Source: Escherichia phage ECML-10
Sequence record: OL631479.1
Reading direction: 5' to 3' (one strand)
DNA length: 64,000 nt
Each line of letters opens with the position of its first letter. Positions within the stretch are counted from its first letter, which is position 1. Below are positions 3,138 through 34,030 of the stretch, piece by piece. The notes beneath the pieces are model-generated. The model did not search any database, was not told the DNA's origin, and was given only the letters and a program-made list of their open reading frames with translations. The position numbers and the translations under genes are program-made.

Positions 3138-4127
3138 TTGACGATGATGGCAAAGTTAACTCTTGAGCAAATTTTAACACTAAAGCAGCAGGGATACACT
3201 AATAGACAAATTGCTCGTGAATTTTTAGGCCGTGAGTCACGTGAGAGTTGGATCCGACTACAGCTTAAACGTGCACAAGAGAATATGTCAGAGATTGTAG
3301 GAGAAGCAACGGAGCGCTTCCTTGAAGAACACAAAGGAGCTAAAGTTTGGGTGTATGATACAGAAACATCACCAACAAACGGCTGGTTCTTTGGGCACTA
3401 TAAGACCAACATTCAAACCTGCGGTATTGAAATTATGCCCTATATGCTAACTTTCGCAGGTAAGTGGTTAGACAGTCCTAGTGTGGTTGACTGCGCTCTT
3501 CCCGATTACAAAATGTGGGATGAGGATATTCACAATGACCTCGAATTGATTCAGGACTTGTGGTATTATCTGGATAAATGTGATGTCGCAGTAGCCCACA
3601 ATTCAGGTTTTGACTGTGGGTGGGCAAACCAACGATTTGCATTTCACGGGTTGCCTCCAACAAGCCCATACAAAGAGGTTGACACCCTTAAAATGATCAA
3701 GAAGGCATTCCGTTTGAATGCAAACACTTTGGAGTATGCATGCAAATACTTCCAACTTGCCAGACAGAAACTGATTGACCACACATTTGAAATGTGGATC
3801 AAGTGTGTTCATGGTGATCTTGAGGCGTTTAAACAGATGCGGGAGTACAATGTTGGTGATATCCTATCTCTGGAAGGCCTGTATTTGCTGGCACGCCCGT
3901 TTGCTAAGCAGCACCCCAACATGTCATTGTACTACCAGGATGAGGAGCCAAAAGTTCGTTGCCCACGCTGCGGTGGAGAACACCTTCACGAGGAAGAAGC
4001 TTTGGCGTATACTCAACTGAGTGCATTTAAAACATATCGCTGCGAAGGTTGTGGATCTGTTGTTCGTGACCGTAACAACATCCGTACCAGAGAAGAAATG
4101 AAAAACACCCTGATTCAGATAATCTAA
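3138..4127 (+). CDS. DnaQ-like 3'-5' exonuclease with N-terminal HTH-like segment and C-terminal CxxC zinc ribbon (putative)
   Basis: AAGGA RBS; exo-like motifs VYDTET, AVAHNSGFDCGW, YNVGD; C-terminal CPRCGG...CEGCG. Confidence 0.5.
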   Translation: MTMMAKLTLEQILTLKQQGYTNRQIAREFLGRESRESWIRLQLKRAQENMSEIVGEATERFLEEHKGAKVWVYDTETSPTNGWFFGHYKTNIQTCGIEIMPYMLTFAGKWLDSPSVVDCALPDYKMWDEDIHNDLELIQDLWYYLDKCDVAVAHNSGFDCGWANQRFAFHGLPPTSPYKEVDTLKMIKKAFRLNANTLEYACKYFQLARQKLIDHTFEMWIKCVHGDLEAFKQMREYNVGDILSLEGLYLLARPFAKQHPNMSLYYQDEEPKVRCPRCGGEHLHEEEALAYTQLSAFKTYRCEGCGSVVRDRNNIRTREEMKNTLIQII

Positions 4128-4136
4128 TCAAGTATA

Positions 4137-4165
4137 GGGAGGCTTGCGCCTCCCTTTTCCTTTTG
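4137..4165 (+). terminator. intrinsic terminator
   Basis: GGGAGGC-ttgc-GCCTCCC hairpin followed by TTTTCCTTTT. Confidence 0.6.
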
Positions 4166-4173
4166 GAGGCACT

Positions 4174-4992
4174 TTGAGCAAGAAAGAGTCCAACGACAAA
4201 TATTACACAAACCCTGAGTATGCAGAATATCTTGTTGGTAAAGTAAAAGATAAGTATGGAAATTGTGCATACGTTGAGCCTTCTGCTGGAAGGGGTTCTT
4301 TTTCAAAACTATTTTCAGAGATACTGTCTTACGATCTAGTACCAGATCCTGAATTTGAAGGACCAACACCGTGCATTCAGGCAAACTTCTTGGAGGTGCA
4401 TCCCAAGGCAGATGTCTTCATAGGTAACCCACCATTTGGCAAGAATTCATCTTTAGCTTGCAAATTCTTTAACCATTGTGCATCATTGCTAGAGCTTGGA
4501 GGGGCTATAGCCTTCATCTTGCCACGGACATTTGAAAAAATATTTTTTGCAAACAAACTGGACATGTCGATGCACCTTGTCTACAGTGAAAGGTGCCCTA
4601 AGAACTCGTTTCTACTTAATGGCAAACCTTATGACGTGCCGTGTGTTTTCCAAATTTGGGAGAAAAAGGCGTGCAACAGGGATCCTGTAGAGATTGGGGA
4701 GAATAAGTTATTTTCTTTTAGCACTCCAGATGACTACGACTTCTGTGTAAGACGTGTTGGGTATAATGCTGGAAAAGTATTGGGGGAGGATGACCCAAAA
4801 TCTGAAGAATCAACATATTTCATAAAATCTTTAGTTGACGGTGTTGACAGAGTGTTTGCTGAATGCTATTCTTCTTTTCAAGAAGAAGCAGGTAAGACTG
4901 CCGGAATGAAGAGTATAGGTAAGAAAGAACTACAATACATTTTGGAGACTAGGTATGATCAAAAGCATAGACTTGACCAAAGAACTTACTGA
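4174..4992 (+). CDS. DNA N6-adenine methyltransferase (putative)
   Basis: motifs DKYYTNP, EPSAGRGSF and NPPFG; start placed at in-frame TTG after the terminator, uncertain. Confidence 0.6.
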   Translation: MSKKESNDKYYTNPEYAEYLVGKVKDKYGNCAYVEPSAGRGSFSKLFSEILSYDLVPDPEFEGPTPCIQANFLEVHPKADVFIGNPPFGKNSSLACKFFNHCASLLELGGAIAFILPRTFEKIFFANKLDMSMHLVYSERCPKNSFLLNGKPYDVPCVFQIWEKKACNRDPVEIGENKLFSFSTPDDYDFCVRRVGYNAGKVLGEDDPKSEESTYFIKSLVDGVDRVFAECYSSFQEEAGKTAGMKSIGKKELQYILETRYDQKHRLDQRTY

Positions 4993-5413
4993 TGCAAAAG
5001 CTTTTGGTGAGACAGCGGTACAAAGGGGGCAGGCGATGGGACTGGCACTACCTTTCGTATTAAAAGAGCACTTTACAGATTTTCAACTTATCAAGGGTGA
5101 TAAGGGAATGCTTATCCTGGAGCATAAGTTGAGTAAGAAACGCTATAAAGTTGTTTTTAATTCTAAAGCTCCAACAAAACTGGGATTCAGAACTTACAAT
5201 CTTAACCCATCCTACACTAAGGGTGTTGGAAGGGTAGAACAACAGCATTTCAGTGCCAGAGCTTCTTTAGCCCCTTTGATGCTAAATTTCTCAGGGGTGG
5301 CTTTAGGATACCTTGATAAGAAAAGAGTTCTTCATGTCCGTTTCACAGACTTTGTAACGCTTCTAGCCAACAACGAGGTTGATGAAAAGGGACGTGTAAA
5401 AACAAACTTCTAA
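4955..5413 (+). CDS. hypothetical protein
   Basis: 152 aa ORF, GGAGA-like RBS. Confidence 0.45.
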   Translation: MIKSIDLTKELTDAKAFGETAVQRGQAMGLALPFVLKEHFTDFQLIKGDKGMLILEHKLSKKRYKVVFNSKAPTKLGFRTYNLNPSYTKGVGRVEQQHFSARASLAPLMLNFSGVALGYLDKKRVLHVRFTDFVTLLANNEVDEKGRVKTNF

Positions 5414-5440
5414 TAACGCATAGTATGATTGGAGAACGCA

Positions 5441-5632
5441 ATGACACTAAAGTTAACAATTCCAGACAGCTTTTCAGAAGACTTTATCCCAGAAATGATG
5501 GGTAAGATGCGATCATTGCTTGATCAGATCGAGGAAGCTGTTTGGGAAGACGATGCTGTAGTGGCTAACGAGCTGGTAGATAAGTGTAAAAGTATTATTG
5601 ATGCAGTTGAAGAATACCACGGAGGTTTTTGA
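5441..5632 (+). CDS. hypothetical small acidic protein
   Basis: ATG after TTGGAGA; 63 aa. Confidence 0.4.
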   Translation: MTLKLTIPDSFSEDFIPEMMGKMRSLLDQIEEAVWEDDAVVANELVDKCKSIIDAVEEYHGGF

Positions 5633-6246
5633 TGGATATTATTGTTCTTAACGCCCCACCCAGCAGTGGTAAGGATCACATTGCAGATCTCTTGTTGGAA
5701 GCTATTCCTAACTCACACCACCGTGAGGTTAAGGAGATGCTCTTCAGTGTGGCAATTAAGGCAGCTGGTGTAACTCCTCAACTCTGGAATGCACTTTATG
5801 ACCGCCACTACAAAGAAGAGCCTTGCCCTTTCTTAATGATAGACGGCAAGCATGTTTCTCCGCGAGAATGGATGATCCATTGTAGTGAAAATCTGATTAA
5901 ACCTATCTTTGGTGAAGATGCTTTCGGTAAAGCCGCAGTCGCATCTTTGAAGAAAGATTTCCCTAAAGGTAAAGGGGTTGTTGTTTACTCCGATGGTGGA
6001 TTCAAAGAGGAGCTGGCATGCCTTAGCGAGTACGCGTACAGCACAGGTGGAGATCTGTTGTTGTTCCGTATTCACCGTGTCGGATATGACTGGGGAAATG
6101 ATTCCAGAACCTATCTAAGTCTGGAAAAGAACGGAATAAAAGGAATTGAGTTCGATGTTGTAAACCCTGAAGGTGCACCTTGGGAATGTGCATCGGAGAT
6201 TGTGTGCAAGTATATTGATGCTAAAGAGGCCCAAGAAGAATGTTAA
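5632..6246 (+). CDS. deoxynucleoside monophosphate kinase (T4 gp1-like)
   Basis: N-terminal P-loop-like IVLNAPPSSGKDHIADLL resembling T4 dNMP kinase; GGAGG RBS. Confidence 0.6.
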   Translation: MDIIVLNAPPSSGKDHIADLLLEAIPNSHHREVKEMLFSVAIKAAGVTPQLWNALYDRHYKEEPCPFLMIDGKHVSPREWMIHCSENLIKPIFGEDAFGKAAVASLKKDFPKGKGVVVYSDGGFKEELACLSEYAYSTGGDLLLFRIHRVGYDWGNDSRTYLSLEKNGIKGIEFDVVNPEGAPWECASEIVCKYIDAKEAQEEC

Positions 6247-6833
6247 TCGGTATTGATGTAGATTTGACACTGGTAGATTCAGGAACAGCATGGTGGGAGT
6301 GGTTGGAGCGTTTATATGGTCCAGCCAGTAAGACAGTCACTAAACCTTCTAATGGGTTAATGTATTACGATCTGTCAAAGTATTGGCCTGATCGCCCCAA
6401 AGAAAACATCATAGGGCCTTTTGATTTCTGGAGTGACCCGTTCCTCTACGACTTTCTTAAGCCTGAAGAGGGGGCTATTGAGGTTATGAAAGATTTGGTG
6501 GCTCGTGGTCACAAGCTTGCATTTATCTCGGTATGCAAGAAAGGTCACCTTGCATCTAAATCAAGGTTCTTAAAGCGTTGGACTAGTGATTTTATGGATC
6601 TGGACGATCACACCCAGGGTCACGGCTTCTACGCCACGCATTTCAAGGGAAATGTGGCTGTAGATGTTATAATTGACGACAGGCATGAATACCTGAACCA
6701 ATTCGCTTCACGCCCTGAAGTTATTAAAATCCTAAAAGATACGCCTTATGAGCAATTTGAGGAGTTAAAGGTTAGTGTTGACTATACCGCTAATAGCTGG
6801 TATAAAATAGGAAAGTTTTTAGAAGGTATTTGA
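6240..6833 (+). CDS. HAD-superfamily phosphatase, putative 5'-deoxynucleotidase
   Basis: N-terminal HAD motif I GIDVDLTLVDSG; start overlaps upstream stop (ATGTTAA). Confidence 0.55.
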   Translation: MLIGIDVDLTLVDSGTAWWEWLERLYGPASKTVTKPSNGLMYYDLSKYWPDRPKENIIGPFDFWSDPFLYDFLKPEEGAIEVMKDLVARGHKLAFISVCKKGHLASKSRFLKRWTSDFMDLDDHTQGHGFYATHFKGNVAVDVIIDDRHEYLNQFASRPEVIKILKDTPYEQFEELKVSVDYTANSWYKIGKFLEGI

Positions 6834-6834
6834 A

Positions 6835-7035
6835 ATGGGCAGATGTTCTAAAGGTGGCGATCCTGTAGTCAGATACGGTGACTGGCTAGAGGTGTATGAT
6901 CTGGGAGGTAAGCTGGTGTATGCCTCCAGGATCACCCAAGACATGTGCTCCGATATGTTCAACAGATACCTTGCATTTAAGGCCAACATAAACCCAGACG
7001 AAATTTCCAAAATTAAAACAAGGAGAGCTAAATAA
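6835..7035 (+). CDS. hypothetical protein
   Basis: 66 aa ORF tightly packed between neighbours. Confidence 0.4.
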   Translation: MGRCSKGGDPVVRYGDWLEVYDLGGKLVYASRITQDMCSDMFNRYLAFKANINPDEISKIKTRRAK

Positions 7036-8018
7036 TGCTAAAACTGTGCACTGCAAAGATCATTGCTGACAGCATTTCCGAGAAAGGTAAGCGCATCACA
7101 ACTTTTGAGCTAGAGTATCCTCGAATTATTCACTCAGAGCTTATGACGCACCGAGTGTTCAGCCGAAACGCCATGTCTTCCCGTGCAGTGCCTGTCGGAA
7201 AGATGCTGCAACAGATTGTGGAGAATCCGGCAATGCCAGTTCGCTTCGGTGTAAATAAGCGAGGAATGGAAGATGGTGGGGAACACGATCAAAAGATCCG
7301 TGTAGAGTACACTGATATGGAGCTAACTCCGGAAGAGTTTTGGAAAGAAGCTGCAAAAAACGCCGCTTGGCATGCAGAGAAGTTTGCCCTTGCTGGTTAC
7401 CATAAGCAAGTATGTAACCGCTTAGTGGAGCCTTTTCAGCGCATGAAAACAGTTGTAACAAGCACCGAGTGGAATAATTTTTTCCACCTCCGTTGCTGGC
7501 ACGATGCGGATCCTACGATTCAGATGTTAGCTAATTGTATGTGGGAGGCTCTTGTGAATAGCACTCCTGAAATCCTTAAACCGGGTCAATGGCACACTCC
7601 ATATGTAGAGCACGTTTATTTGGACGGGGAGTTTAACTACGCTGTACGTGACACAGAAGGAAAGCTCTGCATTCTCGATACTAAAGAAGCTCTGTCTATC
7701 AGTGCTAGTTGCTGTGCACAAGTATCTTATCGAAATATTGACAGCACGTTTGAAAAGGCAGACAGTGTGGCTAAAAAATTGATTGGTGGGGATCGTATTC
7801 ATGCAAGCCCTTACGAGCACCAGGCAACACCTATGGATCACGATAACGCAATGGAACGTTTAAACTACTACCTGTCTTCATGTGAAATCACACAAGACAT
7901 CAGTACTTGGCAGGAAGGTGTAACCCATCAAGACCGTGATGGTAAATTCTGGTCTGCCAACTTTTGTGGGTGGGTTCAGCACAGACAACTGCTTAATAAC
8001 CACTTCGTGAAAGGTTAA
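7035..8018 (+). CDS. thyX: ThyX-like FAD-dependent thymidylate synthase (atypical)
   Basis: AAGGAGAG RBS; segment LMTHRVFSRNAMSSRAV resembles the ThyX RHR-x7-S signature but with T in place of the first R; 327 aa is longer than typical ThyX. Confidence 0.55.
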   Translation: MLKLCTAKIIADSISEKGKRITTFELEYPRIIHSELMTHRVFSRNAMSSRAVPVGKMLQQIVENPAMPVRFGVNKRGMEDGGEHDQKIRVEYTDMELTPEEFWKEAAKNAAWHAEKFALAGYHKQVCNRLVEPFQRMKTVVTSTEWNNFFHLRCWHDADPTIQMLANCMWEALVNSTPEILKPGQWHTPYVEHVYLDGEFNYAVRDTEGKLCILDTKEALSISASCCAQVSYRNIDSTFEKADSVAKKLIGGDRIHASPYEHQATPMDHDNAMERLNYYLSSCEITQDISTWQEGVTHQDRDGKFWSANFCGWVQHRQLLNNHFVKG

Positions 8019-8047
8019 TCCTATCACAGCGATAGGTAACTTTTGTG

Positions 8048-8076
8048 TTGACTAATAGTATTAGATAATCTATAAT
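8048..8076 (+). promoter_or_regulatory. sigma70-like promoter
   Basis: TTGACT-17 nt-TATAAT. Confidence 0.55.
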
Positions 8077-8103
8077 AATGGCTCACTTTGTTGGTGAGCC
8101 AGA

Positions 8104-8578
8104 AATGGAGACAGATATGAGTAATGTTATGATTCCTAAAAAGACATTTATTTCAGTTACTTTGGATTTCCTATCTACCGTTCCCGGGTTTAACGTTCGC
8201 ACACGAAACGGTCTCCGAGCTGCACTCTTTGCCGTAGGGTTTGATTTAAAAAGTATTGATGTTCTTCGTGGAAAAAACGTTCGATGCAAAAATAAGCCAA
8301 CACATTATCGAAAGGCAGATGTATTTGCTGGTGTCATGCGTGCAGACTTTAGATACCCGCAAATGTATAACGGTGTAGATATTTTAGATGTGGATAAAGC
8401 ACCTGGTGAGGCAATGCTTGTTCAAGATCTTCCGTATGATATTCCTGTAGAGGATCGTGTTAATGTAAGAAAGTATACAAAACAATCTGAAAAGGCTGAA
8501 GATATTCATATTGTTGATGAACCTTTCAATTTTGAAGATCTGCATCGCCTGGAAAAATTATTCGGTATTGAAAGCTAA
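8104..8578 (+). CDS. hypothetical protein
   Basis: ORF downstream of promoter; start uncertain (ATG at 8104 or 8116). Confidence 0.45.
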
Positions 8579-8588
8579 GGTGGTGAAG

Positions 8589-8819
8589 ATGAGTCATAAC
8601 TCCAAGTGGAAGGATCTTGGTTTTGCAAGTCGGTCAGAGTATGTTGGTTGGCTTTGGTTCAACGGCCTGACAAATGATATTAAAATGTATGATGATGTTT
8701 ATTATGACGAGTATACAGGCAAAATTATAAATATCTCTGTAGAAGAGGATACCTTTATCCAGCAAGATACTGATACCTGCCTTGATAAATACGTTGATGA
8801 AGTGGAGGAAGCAAATTGA
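8589..8819 (+). CDS. hypothetical acidic protein
   Basis: ATG after AAGGTGG RBS. Confidence 0.4.
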   Translation: MSHNSKWKDLGFASRSEYVGWLWFNGLTNDIKMYDDVYYDEYTGKIINISVEEDTFIQQDTDTCLDKYVDEVEEAN

Positions 8820-11131
8820 TCACCAAGGTAATTAAAAGCAACGGATGTGAAGTGGCATTCGATCCAGAACGTTTAAATAAGGCAGCTATTTTCGGTGACG
8901 ACGGTAACGGCAATTGGTCACATATTGCACTGGATGCATACAAACGACTGTATGATGGATGTACAACCAAAGAAGTTAACCAAGCTATCATAGACTCCTG
9001 TGTTAGCCGTAAAGACGAAGCACATTCCTGTATGGCTGGTCGTGTTCTTATTGGTCAGATTTATAAAGAGGCTTTTGGAGGGTTTACAAAGATCCCTTCC
9101 TTACCATCATTTTACAACGACATGGTTGAGAAAGGGTATTGGGAGGATATGGGATATAGCTTTACCGAGCTAAACACTTTAGACGCTGTTATTGACCACA
9201 GTAAAGATCTCGGTTATGGCTATGCAGTCCTTAAACAGTTTCGCGACAAATACGGGATCAAGGATACTCTTAAAGACACCTTGTTTGAATCTCCCCAGAT
9301 GATGTTTATGGGGATAGCAATGGCTGTCATGAAGAATATGCCGAAAGAACGTCGTATCAACGATGTTGTAAAATTATACACTTATCTGTCCGACTTAAAG
9401 ATCAATGCCCCGACACCGTACTTAAACGGGCTGCGCACAGGTAAGACAGGGTATGCATCTTGTTGTGTAATAAAAGCTGACGATACAGCAAAATCTATTG
9501 GTGTGGCACGTGAAGTTGCGTACACAATGACGGTTAACCAAGCAGGTATCGGCTACTATTTATCATCAAGATCTGCAGGTGATGGTGTTCGCGGTAACAC
9601 TATTAAACACATGGGTAAGATTCCATATTATCGAGGTATTGACGCTGGGGTTAAGGAGAACAGGCAACAATCACGTGGCGGTTCTGCAACAGTATCATTC
9701 CTTGCACTAGACCCGCAGATTGATGAGCTAATCCGCTTGAGAAACCCTATGACTGTTGCTTCAAAAAGAATCAACACCATGGACTACTCCATCGGTATTA
9801 ATAGGTCGTTTATCAACCGTGTGGCTAAGAATTTAGATTGGATGCTTGTTTCTTATAAGCACGCTCCTCAACTGCATGAGGGTATCTTCACCATGTCTAT
9901 GGAGGAGTTTGATGCAGAGGTTGATCGTATTGCTAAAGATGACAGTATCCCTAAAACATGGATCCGAGCCAGAGATCTTGCTGTTGAACTGATCACGCAG
10001 CGTACTGAGGTGGGAAGGCTGTATGTATACTGGACAGATGAGATGAATAGACATACACCTTTTAAAGATGTGATCTATTCAAGTAACCTGTGTGCAGAAA
10101 TAGCCCTCCCTACAAAAGGCTATTCAGATATGCGTAATATCTTCAAGTACGATGCTGATGATGGAGAGGTTGCATTGTGCTTCCTGTCATCTCTTGTAGC
10201 TGGAAGGGTTACTCCAGAGGAGTATGAGGATGTTGCATACTACACGGTGCTTATGATTGACAATGTTATGGAAATCATGACATATCCGTATGAAAATATG
10301 GAAAGCACAGTTAAAAAACGCAGATCCATCGGGGTTGGCCTTACCAATGTTGCACATTTTATTGCCAGCCACAAGGTTACTTACGGATCTCCTGAAAGTA
10401 AACAGCTTGTTCACGATCTTGCAGAACTTCACAGCTACAGCTTGCATAAGGCAAGTTTACGGTTGGCAAAAGAGCGTGGTGTCTGCGAGTGGATGCATAA
10501 AACAAAATATCCAGAAGGTTGGTTACCAATCGACACCTATAACAAAGAGGTCGATAGCGTGGTGAAAGATCCTTCTCTTAAACAGGATTGGGAAGGGTTA
10601 CGTAAAGAAATTATTGAAAATGGTGGGCTACGTAATAGCGTTCTTGAAGCATATATGCCTAATGAAAGCTCTTCGCTGGCAACAAACACCACTAACGGGG
10701 TTTATCCTGTCCGTGAGCACATTATCTTTAAAAAGTCGCCACAAGGGCAGGTGCTGTTTATCGTTCCTGACTATGATGAGTTGAAAGAGTATTACACCTC
10801 GGCTTGGGACGTTGATACTAACGACATGATCGATATGTATGCTGTGATTCAAAAATTTACAGGTCAGGCAATCAGCGCGGATTTATACATAGACTACACC
10901 AAGTTGAAAGATGGTAAAATTTCAATGAAGGAGCAGCTAGGGTACCTTATCCGTGCCACTAAATTCGGGATGAAGACATGGTATTATTTAAACTCCAGGG
11001 TTGGTGCTGGTGACTCATTGGCAGAGGAACTTCATGCCAAGAAACAGGCTGAAGATGAAACCAGAAAGAACTACCCTTTGATTGCAGATAGTTCGGTTGA
11101 AGATCCGTATTGCGAAAGTTGTGCACTATAA
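8816..11131 (+). CDS. nrdA: ribonucleotide reductase class Ia large subunit
   Basis: N-terminal ATP-cone (VIKSNGCEVAFDPERL), active-site NLCAEIALPT, 771 aa. Confidence 0.9.
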   Translation: MITKVIKSNGCEVAFDPERLNKAAIFGDDGNGNWSHIALDAYKRLYDGCTTKEVNQAIIDSCVSRKDEAHSCMAGRVLIGQIYKEAFGGFTKIPSLPSFYNDMVEKGYWEDMGYSFTELNTLDAVIDHSKDLGYGYAVLKQFRDKYGIKDTLKDTLFESPQMMFMGIAMAVMKNMPKERRINDVVKLYTYLSDLKINAPTPYLNGLRTGKTGYASCCVIKADDTAKSIGVAREVAYTMTVNQAGIGYYLSSRSAGDGVRGNTIKHMGKIPYYRGIDAGVKENRQQSRGGSATVSFLALDPQIDELIRLRNPMTVASKRINTMDYSIGINRSFINRVAKNLDWMLVSYKHAPQLHEGIFTMSMEEFDAEVDRIAKDDSIPKTWIRARDLAVELITQRTEVGRLYVYWTDEMNRHTPFKDVIYSSNLCAEIALPTKGYSDMRNIFKYDADDGEVALCFLSSLVAGRVTPEEYEDVAYYTVLMIDNVMEIMTYPYENMESTVKKRRSIGVGLTNVAHFIASHKVTYGSPESKQLVHDLAELHSYSLHKASLRLAKERGVCEWMHKTKYPEGWLPIDTYNKEVDSVVKDPSLKQDWEGLRKEIIENGGLRNSVLEAYMPNESSSLATNTTNGVYPVREHIIFKKSPQGQVLFIVPDYDELKEYYTSAWDVDTNDMIDMYAVIQKFTGQAISADLYIDYTKLKDGKISMKEQLGYLIRATKFGMKTWYYLNSRVGAGDSLAEELHAKKQAEDETRKNYPLIADSSVEDPYCESCAL

Positions 11132-11135
11132 TTTT

Positions 11136-11157
11136 AAAGGGGCTTCGGCCCCATTTT
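11136..11157 (+). terminator. intrinsic terminator
   Basis: GGGGC-ttcg-GCCCC hairpin followed by ATTTT. Confidence 0.55.
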
Positions 11158-11170
11158 AGAGGTTAGAATA

Positions 11171-12259
11171 ATGGCTGTATTTAATGCTGAGAACACCGCT
11201 CATAAAACTGGTGACTATCCGCTGTTTCTAGGACAGCAAATGGGTATGTATGACTCTATCAACAAAAAATATCCACAACTGTTTGAACTATACAAAAAAC
11301 AAAAAGAGCAAGATTGGGCAGAGGATGAAGTGGATTTGTCGCAATCTATTTCAGATTTTGTAACATGCTCCAAGTCAACTTATGACGTGATGGTGCAGAC
11401 CTTGATGTGGCAATGGGAGGCTGATAGCGTTGCGGCAAGATCGATCATCTGCCTCTTTTCACCATTCATCACTAATAGTGAGCTTTTCACTCTATTGATG
11501 AAACAGTCAGAGATTGAAGTTCTTCACGCACTAACTTACTCAGAGATTGTTAGACAATGCCTCCCCAATGCCCGTGAGATTATAGAAGAGATTCAGGAAA
11601 ACCAAAACGTTCTGAGCAGATCTGGCGTTATTGTCAAATACATGCAAGAGCTCGAGGTTATTGGTGCAAAATACCGACTGGATCCTTCTAGTGTTGAAGA
11701 AGATGTTGTGCGGAAATGCATTCTTAGAGCGCTTTTTGCACTTTTAGCCCTGGAAAGTATTGAGTTTATTGCAAGTTTTGCATGCACTTTCGCAGTAGCT
11801 GAACAGGGTATCTTTGTTCAGGTGGCGCAGCTTGTTCAAAAAATCATGCTTGACGAAATGCTACATTCGAAAGGTGATTTTGCCATCATTGATATCCTGC
11901 TTAATGATCCCACATGGGAGAAAAGCTTCCTTGAGATAAAGGGGGAGTTAAAAGAGATTCTTGATGAAGTACGAACCAAAGAGTACGGTTGGAGTGACTA
12001 TATTTTCAGCGAAGGAAGGGCGATTATAGGTCTTAACTCACCGTTGCTTAAAGAATGGGTTGACTATAACTGCTCACCGATTTATGATTACTACGACATC
12101 GACAAAGACTTTGTGCCGCCAACAAAGGACCCGCTACCGTTTATGCAGGTGTGGATGAAACCTTCATTGCAACAGACGGCGAACCAAGAAATGTCGAACA
12201 CTGACTACCGCGTCAACACAACTGTTAACGACGCTGAAGAAGAAATTTGGGAGTTTTAA
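11171..12259 (+). CDS. nrdB: ribonucleotide reductase class Ia small subunit
   Basis: 362 aa directly after nrdA; diiron-ligand-like E..H segments (LDEMLHSKGDF). Confidence 0.85.
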   Translation: MAVFNAENTAHKTGDYPLFLGQQMGMYDSINKKYPQLFELYKKQKEQDWAEDEVDLSQSISDFVTCSKSTYDVMVQTLMWQWEADSVAARSIICLFSPFITNSELFTLLMKQSEIEVLHALTYSEIVRQCLPNAREIIEEIQENQNVLSRSGVIVKYMQELEVIGAKYRLDPSSVEEDVVRKCILRALFALLALESIEFIASFACTFAVAEQGIFVQVAQLVQKIMLDEMLHSKGDFAIIDILLNDPTWEKSFLEIKGELKEILDEVRTKEYGWSDYIFSEGRAIIGLNSPLLKEWVDYNCSPIYDYYDIDKDFVPPTKDPLPFMQVWMKPSLQQTANQEMSNTDYRVNTTVNDAEEEIWEF

Positions 12260-15524: not shown

Positions 15525-16652
15525 GTGTCCAGAAAACTTACAACAGATGAGTTTATAAAGAGGGCAAAAGCAGTTCATGGAGATAAGTATGATTACTCTA
15601 AGGTTGAGTATGTAAATGCCTGCACCAAGGTTATAATTATCTGCCCATATCATGGAGAATTTGAACAAGCTACCCACCAACACCTTGCAGGACGAGGCTG
15701 CCGGGAATGTGGAAAGCTAAAAATGGCACAAAGCCACATTATACCACATAAGGAGTGGTTGAATGTTATCCAAGAGGTCAATCCTTATGTCGAAGTGATT
15801 GGAGAAATAATAAGCTGCAGAACAAAAGTGCCGTGCCGCTGCAAAATTTGCAGTCATGAATGGTCAGCAATGCCTTATCTTCTTAAACAAGGACATGGGT
15901 GCCCTAGATGCGGCAAGCTAAAATTCGCACAAAGCAGAGCTATAGCCCATACCGAGTGGGTCGAGGACATAACGAAGAAAAATACATATATTGAAATAGT
16001 AGAAAGGGTTAAAAATAGCGATACACCAGTATTGGCACGATGCAAAATTTGTAGTCATGAATGGTTAGCAAGACCATCCCATCTTAAACGAGGGCATGGG
16101 TGCCCTAGATGTAAAGGCAATGCAAAGAGATCCCATGTGGAATGGGTAGGGCATATAAAGGTTGTCAATCCAAGTATTAAAGTGCTTGGAAAAATTAAAA
16201 ACGGCAGTGCAAAAGTATTATGTAGGTGTAAGATTTGTGATTATGAATGGTCTCCTGCTCCTATTAGGCTCAAGCAAGGACATGGGTGCCCTAGATGTGC
16301 TAACTACGGCTTTTTATCGTACAATCACGGCAAACTTTACATTATGGTTGATGACTTAGAAGTACCAACACTTATGAAGATCGGTATTAGCGTCAGTGTC
16401 GAAGAGAGAAAAGATAGGATATTGAAAAGTGCCAAAAGGGCAGGGGTAGGTATTTATGATCTCTACCTGGCGAAAACGTGGGAAGGATCAACTCAAAACA
16501 TGGCAGATTTAGAAAAATCTGTGCATAAGGCCTTCAGCAAGTATAAAATAAACTTCCCTGTAAAATTTGATGGTAGCACAGAATTCTTCTACTACAGGCC
16601 TGAAGTGTTTGACACGGTGGAAGAAGTATACAGGAAGATTTGTGGTAAATGA
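15525..16652 (+). CDS. zinc-ribbon repeat protein with C-terminal T5orf172/GIY-YIG-like domain (putative freestanding homing endonuclease)
   Basis: GTG start; four repeats of C-x-I-C-x-H/Y-EW...GHGCPRC; C-terminus YIMVDD...KIGIS...TEFFY. Confidence 0.5.
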   Translation: MSRKLTTDEFIKRAKAVHGDKYDYSKVEYVNACTKVIIICPYHGEFEQATHQHLAGRGCRECGKLKMAQSHIIPHKEWLNVIQEVNPYVEVIGEIISCRTKVPCRCKICSHEWSAMPYLLKQGHGCPRCGKLKFAQSRAIAHTEWVEDITKKNTYIEIVERVKNSDTPVLARCKICSHEWLARPSHLKRGHGCPRCKGNAKRSHVEWVGHIKVVNPSIKVLGKIKNGSAKVLCRCKICDYEWSPAPIRLKQGHGCPRCANYGFLSYNHGKLYIMVDDLEVPTLMKIGISVSVEERKDRILKSAKRAGVGIYDLYLAKTWEGSTQNMADLEKSVHKAFSKYKINFPVKFDGSTEFFYYRPEVFDTVEEVYRKICGK

Positions 16653-30905: not shown

Positions 30906-31232
30906 ATGGGTATACCGATCACTGTAAAAGAATTGAATGAACGTGATGCAGGTGGTCTATGGCCTGCACGAAAAATACGCTGCGTCTACATGAAAGAGAA
31001 CCTTGAACATCTTGATCAACAGATCAAGGTCGGTGATATTTTCGAGGTCTTCTATTCCAATCGTCGCAACTGGGAAACCATTCAGCCTTCTGGTTTTGTT
31101 CTTGCCAAACTTGACACTGGAGAAGTGATTATCCCAGGGTTGGATATTGTCTTCGAAATTATCCAGGAGTGGGATCCGGATAAGATTAGATATGAAGAGT
31201 TATTCGGTGAAGGTATTATCAAACCTGTGTGA
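30906..31232 (+). CDS. hypothetical protein
   Basis: 108 aa ORF after GAAGGAGA RBS. Confidence 0.45.
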   Translation: MGIPITVKELNERDAGGLWPARKIRCVYMKENLEHLDQQIKVGDIFEVFYSNRRNWETIQPSGFVLAKLDTGEVIIPGLDIVFEIIQEWDPDKIRYEELFGEGIIKPV

Positions 31233-31240
31233 GGTGGATT

Positions 31241-31540
31241 ATGTCTACAAAGACGGCTAAATACTCCTACATGCCATCAACCTCTGCAGAGGTAGATTTT
31301 AGTTTCGATGTGTTTCCACTGTTTGAGGTGGTTCTGGCATACCCAACAATACTATCTACTCCGGAATCACTTGTGCCTGTTAAGTTGCAGAACGCCATGC
31401 ATTCTATGCACTACAACAATAAATGCAGGCACAGATGGTGTCAGGACGAGGAAAAAGATCTGGATAGTTTGAGAGATTTTGACAGTCACCTTTTGACACC
31501 TTTCAGCTACTCCAACCTTGATAAGCCATCATGGGTATAG
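31241..31540 (+). CDS. hypothetical protein
   Basis: ATG after GAGGTGG. Confidence 0.4.
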   Translation: MSTKTAKYSYMPSTSAEVDFSFDVFPLFEVVLAYPTILSTPESLVPVKLQNAMHSMHYNNKCRHRWCQDEEKDLDSLRDFDSHLLTPFSYSNLDKPSWV

Positions 31541-31565
31541 CAAAATATCAAATTTAAGACACCTA

Positions 31566-31592
31566 GGACGCTCTGTGGCGTCCTTTTCTTTA
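31566..31592 (+). terminator. intrinsic terminator
   Basis: GGACGC-tctgtg-GCGTCC followed by TTTTCTTT. Confidence 0.7.
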
Positions 31593-31753
31593 TCTGGTGC
31601 ACGATTGCATACCTTGGACAGATAATCTCCTTACAGAGCGTTTAAGAGCTTCCTACAAACAACTCTCTTTTTCGAGCGTAGCGAGAACGCACGTCCGTTT
31701 TGACCCAAATCCCCATACGCTCGGATTTTAACCAAACCCTCGCGGCGTTTCTA

Positions 31754-31782
31754 TTGACACATTACCGCTCCAGTGATAGTAT
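31754..31782 (+). promoter_or_regulatory. sigma70-like promoter
   Basis: TTGACA-17 nt-TAGTAT. Confidence 0.5.
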
Positions 31783-31900
31783 CCACACATAGTTTGTAGA
31801 ATATGGAATACACAATGAGAACATTGTCCGAAGTTTTAGTAGTGATCCTGATGATCATTACGTCCATAGCGGCTGTTGCCGGAATACTCACGGGTGGAAC

Positions 31901-32113
31901 ATGATCAACACGCATGCACCTGAAGAGACATCCGAAGGAGTGACCATATGTCCATTGTCTGAGCCAGTGAAAGAGGAAAACTTCGATTCTGAAGATTCTC
32001 CATCTTCGCTCCAGGTAGATCCTGAGGCTGATGACCTAACGTGGGAAGACATCGTAGACATCTGGTTCTCCATTATGCCTGAGCACGAAGAGTTCAGAGG
32101 TGGTAGACTATGA
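31901..32113 (+). CDS. hypothetical acidic protein
   Basis: 70 aa ORF; a possible 29-aa hydrophobic peptide ORF lies just upstream (about 31816-31905). Confidence 0.35.
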   Translation: MINTHAPEETSEGVTICPLSEPVKEENFDSEDSPSSLQVDPEADDLTWEDIVDIWFSIMPEHEEFRGGRL

Positions 32114-32234
32114 AGCACCGAGCCCACACAGGTTCCTCATGCTAAAGCATGGCCTGAAGAGGCAAACGTGTATAATTCCAGTGCATTGGAACGTATAAAA
32201 CCCTGTTCACACTCTCATTTCCAGAGGAGATTTC

Positions 32235-32450
32235 ATGAAGATAGAAATATTTGGTGGAGCTGACAACACTCGTGGCCTGATTTACCTTGAATTCGATGAA
32301 ACATACCTGCCAGAGGTGTTAAATATAGACTCTGTTGCTGAGGCTTTGGGAGTAAACCCTAAAGAACTCCACTCTTGTGCTGAGATCGATGGTTGGGAAG
32401 AGACCATGAACATTGATTTCAGTGAAGTAGAGGATGAACCGCTGGACTGA
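32235..32450 (+). CDS. small acidic protein, paralog family member
   Basis: MKIEIFGG..., C-terminal EVEDEPLD; last plus-strand gene. Confidence 0.45.
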   Translation: MKIEIFGGADNTRGLIYLEFDETYLPEVLNIDSVAEALGVNPKELHSCAEIDGWEETMNIDFSEVEDEPLD

Positions 32451-32577
32451 CACACAATTAGCTGCCCGGCTAAAGTGCTGGAAGCACCTATAACACATCT
32501 TTCAACTAAATTTCCCACCACCACAATCACTTACCTCCCACACATGACTGTTTGCTTGTTTAGTGAGCAGTCATGCC

Positions 32578-32605
32578 TTGACATTCTTGCCTATCCTGAT
32601 AAAAT
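32578..32605 (+). promoter_or_regulatory. sigma70-like promoter facing into ORF-poor region
   Basis: TTGACA-16 nt-TAAAAT; no credible ORF downstream. Confidence 0.4.
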
Positions 32606-34030
32606 TAAGTTCTTCTCTTTTCTTTTACCGAGTAATTCGGGTTTTCTGTTCTCTTCGGTTTGAAGGGGTATGGAGATACACCTGAGTGAACAGGGTGAAC
32701 AACCGAACATTTGGCTATGGCATTAGCATGGCGAAGCGGACGGGTGACGAAAGAGGGGCCGGAGGACACCAGTCACTGCCATATGATATATGGGTGATAA
32801 CCTGAAGAGTCTGAATAAGTGTTTAAGTACCAGTCAGAGGAAAAGGTGAATGGTAGCCGAAGGGGGAGGGGGTTTCTTGTATCTTTAATTTGTATATTAT
32901 GTATACATTCGTAAACCAATCTCATCTGAATCTGTTTACCACACAAAGTGGATAGAGACAAATATTACCTATTAAACTTGAATTATTTATAGAAAATACT
33001 ACAACACTACTTAAGTATTTGATTTTACACACAAATCCTGCAGATATTCACCCCCCATATTTAACATACTTGTAACATATTCCATACTCTACCTGACCGA
33101 TCAACTCACCCAACTACATCCTCCATATTTCCCCTGTCTGTACTACCCCTGCCCAGCCGGGAGTCCCGTCATATCTGGCTTTCCAGCAAATATCACACCC
33201 ACAAATATCATTGCCTGAAGAGGGTTTCATCCCATAATACATGCCTTACCTGAAGAGCGCTTCATATACCCCGTAAATTTTTTAATTGACACCCTCCCCG
33301 CCGCCGGAGGGGGTTGGCTTTTCCCACACAGACCCGAAGAGCCAGCCAGAAATATCTGAACAGGTCCAGCTATGCCACGATTTTGACCTGACCTACAGGA
33401 GTGCTTCCCTGTCAGGAGCCGGTAGCGACTGGAGTGCTGCCAGGCGGACGAAATGGGAATACTTCTCATTCTTATAATAATTCTCAAATATCGAGGCAGT
33501 GAGGCAAATTAATAGGTGAGGCCGTTCACACAGTGGCACAACATTTGCAACCTATCTTGTGTGGGGGAATGAGAATACCTATCATTGTGAGAATAGTTAT
33601 CATTACGGGCAATTTAACATAATACCCATTATGCGCACCACTGGCGATCCATACAGGGATTGATAACATGAGTTACTGTTTATGCATATAACAATTATAT
33701 TTCTTACTATTTGTGTGGGATATAGTTAGCAGCCAATAGATTAGATATTGACCTGTAGACTTCTGACCGTCCAGACGTCTAAACGCCCACACAACAAGGC
33801 TTATACATACATCGCTGAATGTAAACAGGGCCGCAAAAATGCTACCATACCAGATTGTAAATTTTTCATACAGCACTTGACAAAGAGGAGAAAAACTTGT
33901 CTGACACTTTAGACACAATAGTGACATAATGGTGACACACTGGGCATACTCAACACACTGGATACAATAACAGTTGTTACTATTGCATGCTTCACTGTTC
34001 ACGTATAGATTGTTTACACAGAGATGATAA

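Follow-up and report, generated by a model that had tools for sequence, protein, structure and literature searches.

Does the nucleotide-metabolism locus of Escherichia phage ECML-10 supply ordinary thymidylate (dTMP), or does it make an unusual pyrimidine? We addressed this question in a 64,000-nucleotide stretch of sequence record OL631479.1 (the window), in which genes for a deoxynucleoside monophosphate (dNMP) kinase-like protein, an HAD phosphatase and a 327-residue ThyX-like protein lie at positions 5632–8018 of the plus strand. A preliminary description of this DNA had grouped the three into a nucleotide-pool module and, pointing to the atypical signature of the ThyX-like protein and to nearby methyltransferases, had raised the possibility of a non-canonical pyrimidine or modification pathway. 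The three open reading frames (ORFs) are real at these coordinates, and the module holds up as a kinase, an NT5C-type HAD enzyme and a ThyX-like protein followed by ribonucleotide reductase (RNR) genes. Our analysis leads to a different view of its chemistry. In the ThyX-like protein the ThyX sequence is circularly permuted, so that the canonical N-terminal block comes after the core. To judge from its sequence, the protein is probably a working flavin-dependent dTMP synthase with a re-wired active site, representing a phage-specific permuted clade.

The ThyX-like protein (7035–8018, plus strand; rV5 gp106/N4 gp30 family) matches PHROG85 "thymidylate synthase" (E = 1.6e-112) and scores above the gathering threshold of Pfam PF02511 (Thy1; 37.4 bits against 24.8, E = 3e-9); its fold is that of ThyX. 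The Pfam match pairs residues 23–178 with profile positions 60–190 of 191. Together, Thy1 and TIGR02170 cover residues 22–180 only, corresponding to the C-terminal two-thirds of the profiles, and leave the last 150 residues unmatched. Against TIGR02170 the native protein scores 40.0–40.2 bits, below the equivalog cut-off of 87.9, in agreement with the earlier view of an atypical ThyX. A direct sequence search of the PDB returned no match at E ≤ 1, and there is no solved structure for the clade. Within the unmatched 150 residues, A-Q-V-S231-Y-R and H256-A-S-P-Y-E-H262 resemble the N-terminal A-R-V-S30-F and H53-E-T-P-F-E-H59 of Thermotoga maritima ThyX, whose sequence was checked against PDB entry 1kq4.

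A HMMER search of the PDB with the family profile gave three pieces on 5chp in permuted order, with query residues 222–265, 21–50 and 129–174 pairing with chain residues 34–75, 75–104 and 169–214, respectively; these hits were marginal and piecewise. Using hhalign, a 128-sequence family profile was aligned with a doubled T. maritima ThyX, yielding one collinear 272-column alignment (probability 94%, E = 1.3e-7) that spans query residues 9–323 and positions 48–360 of the doubled template. We then reversed the permutation in silico by moving residues 187–262 ahead of residues 20–186. The Pfam Thy1 score rose from 37.4 to 54.3 bits and profile coverage extended from 60–190 to 15–190, and four other members, 37–38% identical to the query, likewise gained 14–21 bits. 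Control constructs consisting of the core alone, or of the core with the C-terminal extension, a shuffled block or a reversed block, scored 36.7–37.9 bits. The TIGR02170 score increased from 40.2 to 57.3 bits, covering 19–207 of 211 positions. In addition, the order of secondary-structure elements in the model agrees with the permuted order.

The permuted architecture comprises β3, a helix, the THR…SSR loop, a helical region, and β4 with the R174 helix, followed by the relocated block and the extension. The relocated block (residues 187–262; 7593–7820, plus strand), which is N-terminal in canonical ThyX, contains three β-strands and the helices with the A-Q-V-S231-Y-R and H256-A-S-P-Y-E-H262 motifs. 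The family-specific C-terminal extension (residues 263–327, 65 residues; 7821–8015, plus strand) carries N309, Q315 and the invariant R317, and no similarity linking it to ThyX or to other parts of the protein was detected. Permutation and extension together account for the extra length relative to typical ThyX, a feature that the preliminary description had recognized without seeing its cause. Two candidate internal repeats were rejected. Reading the extension as a degenerate second β3/RHR copy (GWVQHRQ compared with QWFRHR) gave hhalign E values of 0.18–0.38, not significant and a hint at most, and reading the N-terminal strand (residues 6–15) as a duplicate of the relocated strands gave E = 0.58.

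Family members of 520–680 residues were considered as tandem ThyX duplications, that is, as permutation intermediates, which was ruled out by the presence of inteins with HNH or LAGLIDADG domains (P0127, P0135, P0136, P0140, P0152, P0164, P0165, P0172, P0179, P0182, P0194, P0202, P0212 and P0240). Inteins are typically found at catalytic motifs, and at least four insertion sites in this family (query numbering) fall there: after H33, after F42 or S48, around R153, and after H256.

How far the active site has been preserved was assessed in a conservation set of 128 representatives, 37–52% identical to the query, with residue roles taken from PMC11940539 and from general knowledge. In ungapped alignments, the signature loop (residues 38–51, T-H-R-V-F-S-R-N-A-M-S-S-R-A; 7146–7187, plus strand) corresponds to R78-H79-R80…S88-G89-R90-Y91 of T. 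maritima ThyX, and the segment of residues 129–153 (7419–7493, plus strand) supplies R129, N148 and R153, aligned with Arg147, Asn169 and Arg174. The equivalents of the residues that contact dUMP, flavin and folate in T. maritima (Ser30, His53, His79, Asn85, Ser88, Arg90, Arg147, Asn169 and Arg174) are 95–100% conserved. Specifically, H39 (His79), R50 (Arg90), R153 (Arg174), S231 (Ser30) and H256 (His53) are present in all 128 sequences, and S48 (Ser88), N45 (Asn85), R129 (Arg147), N148 (Asn169) and H262 (His59) in at least 95%.

Departures from ThyX are also family-wide. The canonical signature R-H-R-x7-S, in its extended form S-x-R-Y, is absent, with the His, the second Arg (82%), the Ser and the following Arg retained. 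The THR-x-FS-x-N-x-MSSR motif given in the preliminary description is exact (T38 to R50), and THR replaces RHR in 124 of the 128 diverse relatives. The position of Arg78 is T38, a Thr in 97% of the set, and that of Tyr91 is A51, an Ala in 100%. In the alignment with the ThyX contact residues, proposed in that description as a check on its idea, the dUMP, flavin and folate contacts are conserved and Arg78 and Tyr91 are replaced. In T. maritima ThyX, Arg78 points at and stabilizes the N1/C2=O region of the reduced flavin, and Tyr91 hydrogen-bonds His53 and Arg90, its mutation reducing the flavin oxidation rate approximately 1000-fold (PMC11940539). In the most divergent members (P0241, P0234 and P0266), T-H-R reads T-H-K, T-H-S or T-H-A. 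Within the permuted clade, the His is the only truly invariant residue of the classical R-H-R.

Several other positions are invariant in this family specifically, namely G77-M78 in an inserted loop, K124, H187, P189, and N309, Q315 and R317 of the extension. These family invariants may have replaced Arg78 and Tyr91, with R317 as a candidate stand-in for Arg78. We consider it possible, as a tentative proposal, that the clade is a true dTMP synthase whose flavin and carbinolamine steps have been re-wired through residues of the C-terminal extension such as R317. In the searchable literature we found four features undescribed: the permutation, the replacement of Arg78 and Tyr91 throughout the family, the invariant extension at the C-terminus and the intein sites. 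The module itself is already known and ordinary.

The family is large. At E 1e-30 or better, it comprises 3,392 clusters at 50% identity. It is present in 1,035 phage records, with carriers of the gene including Vequintavirinae, phi92-like phages, Phapecoctavirus, ICP1, Pakpunavirus, N4-like phages of several hosts, roseophages and phiCbK-like phages, among others. The gene adjoins RNR genes in ICP1 and Pakpunavirus and a dCTP deaminase gene in N4 and G7C-like phages; in roseophages, which already have it under the name thyX, the neighbor is a dCMP deaminase gene. We surveyed 80 IMG/VR loci with relatives 43–88% identical to the ECML-10 protein, inspecting 10 kb on each side; these loci are phylogenetically related. 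An HAD gene lies near ThyX in 18 of the 80, usually 0–3 genes upstream, and a dNMP kinase gene in 11. TK1-type thymidine kinases occur in five loci, proteins with a cytidine-deaminase motif in six, Dut-family proteins in three and a ThyA-like gene in one.

This distribution bears on whether the protein acts on deoxyuridylate (dUMP) at all. It could instead be a PolB-like C5-methylase for UMP or CMP, a C5-methylase for dCMP, or a catalytically dead remnant with another role. The missed equivalog cut-off fits such a reading, as do a loop after R50 unlike that of canonical ThyX and the invariant G77-M78 insertion. Nevertheless, Arg90 and Arg174, both of them uracil-ring contacts in ThyX structures, have invariant equivalents, and the equivalent of Arg147 is nearly invariant. 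Approximately 3,400 representatives retain strong motif conservation, and inteins target the motifs, which argues against a dead remnant. The neighbors belong to deoxynucleotide metabolism (RNR, dCTP or dCMP deaminases, and dNMP or thymidine kinases), and the phage has no other candidate thymidylate synthase. Neither the annotation nor a search of JLBYU08, a related phage with a complete genome, revealed a ThyA, canonical ThyX, dUTPase (Dut), dihydrofolate reductase (DHFR, FolA) or zinc-deaminase motif, within the limited sensitivity of tblastn, in which a T. maritima query also misses the permuted ThyX; this leaves the permuted protein as the only candidate. We therefore regard another substrate or a loss of activity as very unlikely.

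A second alternative is thymidine replacement, in which the altered enzyme would release a C5-modified dUMP, such as 5-hydroxymethyl-dUMP formed by hydration of the exocyclic methylene, the HAD enzyme would deplete the canonical nucleotide as a dTMP/dUMP phosphatase, and the phage kinase would phosphorylate the modified dNMP. A kinase, an NT5C-type nucleotidase and an atypical homolog of a C5-methylase are indeed adjacent and coupled, and the invariantly altered Arg78 and Tyr91 positions both act in the flavin and carbinolamine steps. Few substitutions can suffice to switch chemistry in the thymidylate-synthase superfamily, as in the 5-hydroxy-dCMP synthases (PMC13326640). However, the Thr38/Ala51 state is common to the whole family, including N4 gp30, which shares the architecture of the ECML-10 protein and is 42% identical to it from end to end. 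Homologs of the HAD enzyme, the kinase, Tdk and ThyA are all absent from the N4 genome, so that the gp30 product must go to a host kinase; in view of what E. coli Tmk is known to accept, this points to dTMP. The DNA of N4 is made from ordinary dTTP. Across the survey, ThyX occurs without HAD in 62 of the 80 loci and without the kinase in 69, and its neighbors, dCTP or dCMP deaminases and RNR, are those expected of a normal dTMP route. No dUTPase or dTTPase was found, and there is no annotated inhibitor of host ThyA and no DNA-level transferase in the module. The nearby methyltransferase (4144–4992), one of those invoked in the preliminary description, has PHROG799 "DNA methyltransferase" as its match (E = 2.6e-13) and contains an NPPF motif. 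As NPPF is the usual amino-methyltransferase motif, this enzyme most likely acts on DNA and not on nucleotides and would then give such a pathway no support.

Restriction data point in the same direction. Three BASEL isolates, CarlMeissner, MaxTheCat and HeinrichReichert, are 99.8–99.9% identical to region 5400–8600 of the window, and Vequintavirinae with this module are "exceptionally susceptible" to restriction-modification systems, which rules out bulky hypermodified bases. Thymidine replacement as outlined above is in our view highly improbable. A variant in which the loss of Arg78 and Tyr91 signifies changed chemistry, and the trio makes a C5-modified deoxyuridylate that replaces thymidine partly or fully without blocking common restriction enzymes, is likewise highly improbable. 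Given the restriction sensitivity of Vequintavirinae and the absence of a cognate kinase and phosphatase from N4, plain dTMP synthesis is the best reading, and the non-canonical pathway raised in the preliminary description finds no support, given the retained contact residues and the deaminase and RNR neighbors.

If the protein is a dTMP synthase, host-derived dUMP would be converted to dTMP by the permuted ThyX with methylenetetrahydrofolate, FAD and NAD(P)H, and phage dTTP supply would be freed from host ThyA and DHFR. The kinase would convert dNMPs, the new dTMP included, into diphosphates, and the HAD enzyme would dephosphorylate (deoxy)pyrimidine monophosphates, pairing with the kinase for pool balance or salvage. 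The product dTMP, like the substrates of the two partner enzymes, is what we infer from these comparisons.

The kinase-like P-loop protein (204 residues; 5632–6246, plus strand, with its ATG at 5632) matches PHROG139 "deoxynucleoside monophosphate kinase" (E = 9e-45), a family found in 1,522 phage records, with no Pfam or NCBIfam match. Eleven homologs share the P-loop S-S-G13-K14-D15, the motif S-D-G-G-F-x-E-E, and D157-S158-R159. An HMM search of the PDB with the family profile did not recover T4 gp1 (1DEK). Aligned directly by hhalign with the T4 gp1 sequence, confirmed as that of 1DEK, the kinase gave 81% probability and E = 1e-5 over 59 N-terminal columns only, that is, in the N-terminal third; a global alignment was uninformative past the P-loop region. 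The protein is probably a T4-gp1-like dNMP kinase.

The HAD phosphatase (197 residues; 6240–6833, plus strand) exceeds the gathering score of Pfam PF06941 (NT5C; 27.3 bits against 24.8). A profile of 21 family sequences (30–58% identity to the query) found only 5'(3')-deoxyribonucleotidases among its top PDB matches, namely 3bwv (E = 7e-10) and the human mitochondrial deoxyribonucleotidase mdN 1mh9 (E = 2.4e-9) over the full length and cdN (approximately 1e-5) over a partial stretch. HAD motifs I–IV are kept, with D6, D8, K136 and D147 invariant and S97 and D146 present in at least 90% of the sequences. The protein is thus an NT5C-type enzyme, and its family membership and synteny with the kinase and ThyX suggest a preference for deoxyribonucleoside monophosphates. 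The 7-nt overlap between the kinase and HAD genes (ATGTTAA) makes the translational coupling noted in the preliminary description plausible, and "opposing activities" is a correct description of the two. Because the nucleotidase is persistently linked to a (deoxy)nucleotide kinase and ThyX, a pool-balancing or salvage pair, resembling the mammalian NT5C/thymidine-kinase cycles that set dTTP pools, would be a better fit than a futile cycle.

Instead of opposing the kinase, the HAD enzyme might feed ThyX, by a bypass in which dCMP from host-DNA breakdown is dephosphorylated to deoxycytidine, deaminated to deoxyuridine by host cytidine deaminase (Cdd) and rephosphorylated to dUMP by host or phage Tdk; this would make up for the missing dCMP or dCTP deaminase of rV5-like phages. 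The rV5-like genomes contain no deaminase motif, and phi92-like phages line up a TK1-type thymidine kinase, HAD and ThyX. HAD accompanies all five thymidine-kinase loci and none of the six loci with a cytidine-deaminase motif, and N4-like phages and roseophages have deaminases without HAD. Nonetheless, the cross-tabulation of HAD with deaminase or Dut gives 17 loci with HAD only, 8 with deaminase or Dut only, 1 with both and 54 with neither, where about 2 co-occurrences are expected by chance, so the trend is not significant; the relatedness of the 80 loci and the 10-kb range further limit its weight. More than half of the loci (54) have neither partner nearby. Furthermore, known NT5C enzymes prefer dUMP and dTMP, and such a preference would drain the ThyX substrate or product. 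We judge this bypass, attractive as it is, rather unlikely.

Several points weigh against the proposed dTMP-supply module. Even un-permuted, the ThyX-like protein misses the TIGR02170 equivalog cut-off. Arg78 and Tyr91, mechanistically important in T. maritima ThyX, are replaced invariantly by Thr38 and Ala51, and the Arg80 equivalent R40 is an Arg in only 82% of the representatives. Beyond the P-loop region, the kinase is only weakly linked to T4 gp1. As the phage has no gene for a dUMP-generating enzyme, its dUMP supply rests on the host. Restriction sensitivity is not known to exclude a modification as small as 5-hydroxymethyluracil (hmU). Finally, we found in the searchable literature neither a biochemical or genetic test of any member of the permuted clade nor a nucleoside or base-composition analysis of rV5-like virion DNA, the latter absence also leaving room for thymidine replacement. 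With these points taken into account, a dTMP synthase remains the reading we favor.

The window derives from an rV5-like Vequintavirus, a myovirus, and the region is a deoxynucleotide-supply operon. Over region 5400–8600, identity reaches 100% with Escherichia phages EdH4 and JLBYU08 and is no lower than 98.6% in the 25 best of the rV5-like (Vequintavirus) matches listed; in each of the 120 matching records it is 90% or more. The module sits in a plus-strand block of replication and nucleotide-metabolism genes, where five genes form a tight run. A 67-residue ORF with no assigned function (5429–5632, plus strand; PHROG7393) overlaps the kinase start by 1 nt (TGATG), and the HAD gene follows the kinase. 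A 66-residue ORF with no assigned function (6835–7035, plus strand; PHROG4903) starts one base past the HAD stop and overlaps the ThyX start (TAATG). The preliminary description had the order of HAD and ThyX right and omitted this small ORF between them, which is kept only in close relatives. From these stop/start overlaps, translational coupling across the whole run appears plausible. In GenBank the module genes are labeled "FAD-dependent thymidylate synthase", "deoxynucleotide monophosphate kinase" and "5'(3')-deoxyribonucleotidase".

Directly 3' of ThyX lies a conserved ORF with no assigned function (8117–8578, plus strand; 153 residues from an internal Met, or 166 from position 8078). In JLBYU08 it is labeled "putative thymidylate synthase", a label for which we found no family, PDB or fold match; the ORF is not a hidden dUMP-generating enzyme. 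It is followed by a small ORF and by NrdA, NrdB, glutaredoxin and NrdD/NrdG, that is, class Ia and class III RNRs. The class Ia genes occupy 8816–12259 on the plus strand (α, 8816–11131; β, 11171–12259), as identified from the ORFs and from the annotation of the identical JLBYU08 genes.

The order [kinase]–HAD–(small ORF)–ThyX–(conserved ORF)–(small ORF)–NrdA–NrdB recurs, in distant lineages too. In the phi92-like phage PHB05 (L009, 1954–4072), the order is Tdk–HAD–ThyX, and the kinase slot is filled by a TK1-type thymidine kinase with a P-loop and C-terminal Cys pairs, which has no homology to the rV5 kinase. In Vibrio phage F90 and in ICP1, a homolog of the rV5 kinase lies directly 5' of HAD. 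In ICP1 (L008, MW794187; 2480–2520), the kinase homolog gp170 and the HAD ORF share one frame, with a single TGA between them. No ATG, GTG or TTG precedes the HAD DxD motif there, and the annotated coding sequence begins downstream, without the catalytic aspartates. Possible explanations are a kinase–phosphatase fusion made by stop-codon readthrough, an unusual start codon or a pseudogene. The single locus with a ThyA-like gene (L035, IMGVR_UViG_3300028615_000018) encodes a permuted ThyX with kinase and HAD upstream, and a ThyA-like protein at 15681–16310 that has the P-C-H catalytic motif and a Gly where E. coli has Asp169. One of these two enzymes may have a different role.

Further observations concern the surrounding genome and the database records. 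Upstream of the module, a stand-alone DNA polymerase exonuclease subunit (3138–4127; PHROG403, with a C-terminal zinc ribbon) is followed by the methyltransferase-like gene at 4144–4992, and the polymerase itself lies approximately 50 kb away on the opposite strand. Around 31000–34000 the GC skew flips from positive to negative, matching the switch from plus- to minus-strand genes in an annotated relative. Up to 39 unannotated "Campylobacter phage" records, with Campylobacter jejuni given as the host, match module genes, and those listed (e.g., MG065635, MG065653 and MG065661) are 98.6–100% identical to the E. coli rV5-like module. The host label of these records looks doubtful, suggesting contaminating coliphage or mislabeling.

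ThyX is of interest as a target for antibacterial drugs and as an enzyme in which the mechanism of flavin-mediated methylene transfer is modeled. If active, a permuted clade lacking Arg78 and Tyr91 would reveal which residues are truly indispensable and would test topology against function. The clade is natural and large: its members form about 3,400 clusters at 50% identity and come from over 1,000 sequenced phages, among them N4, ICP1, rV5 and the phi92-like and PAK_P-like phages. Annotation is affected as well, since equivalog models miss the clade, Pfam covers part of the protein, and at least one GenBank record places "thymidylate synthase" on the unrelated downstream ORF. For the phage itself the module is ordinary, and no evidence of DNA hypermodification is to be read from it.

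Comparison with known systems places these features in context. The Bacillus phages with hmU in their DNA (SPO1, phi-e and SP8) encode a dUMP hydroxymethylase, dTMP/dTTP hydrolases and a modified-dNMP kinase, a set that the thymidine-replacement scheme would mirror and to which the trio described here is superficially similar. Their hydroxymethylase belongs to the ThyA family, as does that of thymidine-hypermodifying phages (PMC8989533). Unlike these, the rV5-like module, judged from the related complete genome, comes with neither a ThyA homolog nor a dUTPase or dTTPase, its DNA is not refractory to restriction, and its ThyX family also occurs in phages without the kinase or the HAD. Phage T4 gp1 (1DEK/1DEL) shares with the phage kinase the P-loop S-G-K-D and the region following it, a likeness confined to the N-terminal third. 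The phage HAD enzyme matches the mammalian NT5C nucleotidases mdN and cdN by profile and keeps all HAD catalytic motifs, at 20–25% identity at best; its gene, however, is phage-encoded and adjoins a dNMP or thymidine kinase gene, and we regard it as co-transcribed with the kinase.

In canonical ThyX (T. maritima TM0449, M. tuberculosis ThyX and PBCV-1 A674R; PF02511, TIGR02170), the N-terminal block of residues 20–59 precedes the core, whereas the phage protein has it after the core and adds the 65-residue extension with invariant R317, the G77-M78 loop insertion and the Arg78-to-Thr and Tyr91-to-Ala replacements. PolB of Streptomyces cacaoi (4p5a), a ThyX-fold UMP/dUMP C5-methylase that belongs to an antibiotic pathway, is collinear with T. 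maritima ThyX over nearly its whole length and is therefore not permuted. Permuted members of the same family are N4 gp30 and the products of thyX in N4-like roseophages, an auxiliary metabolic gene annotated there as thymidylate synthase. N4-like phages combine ThyX with a dCTP or dCMP deaminase, without HAD or dNMP kinase, whereas rV5-like phages combine it with the kinase, HAD and RNR, without a deaminase. Across this difference in gene content, N4 gp30 shares with the ECML-10 protein the THR…SSRA loop, the HASPxEH motif of the relocated block and the C-terminal GWIQxR.

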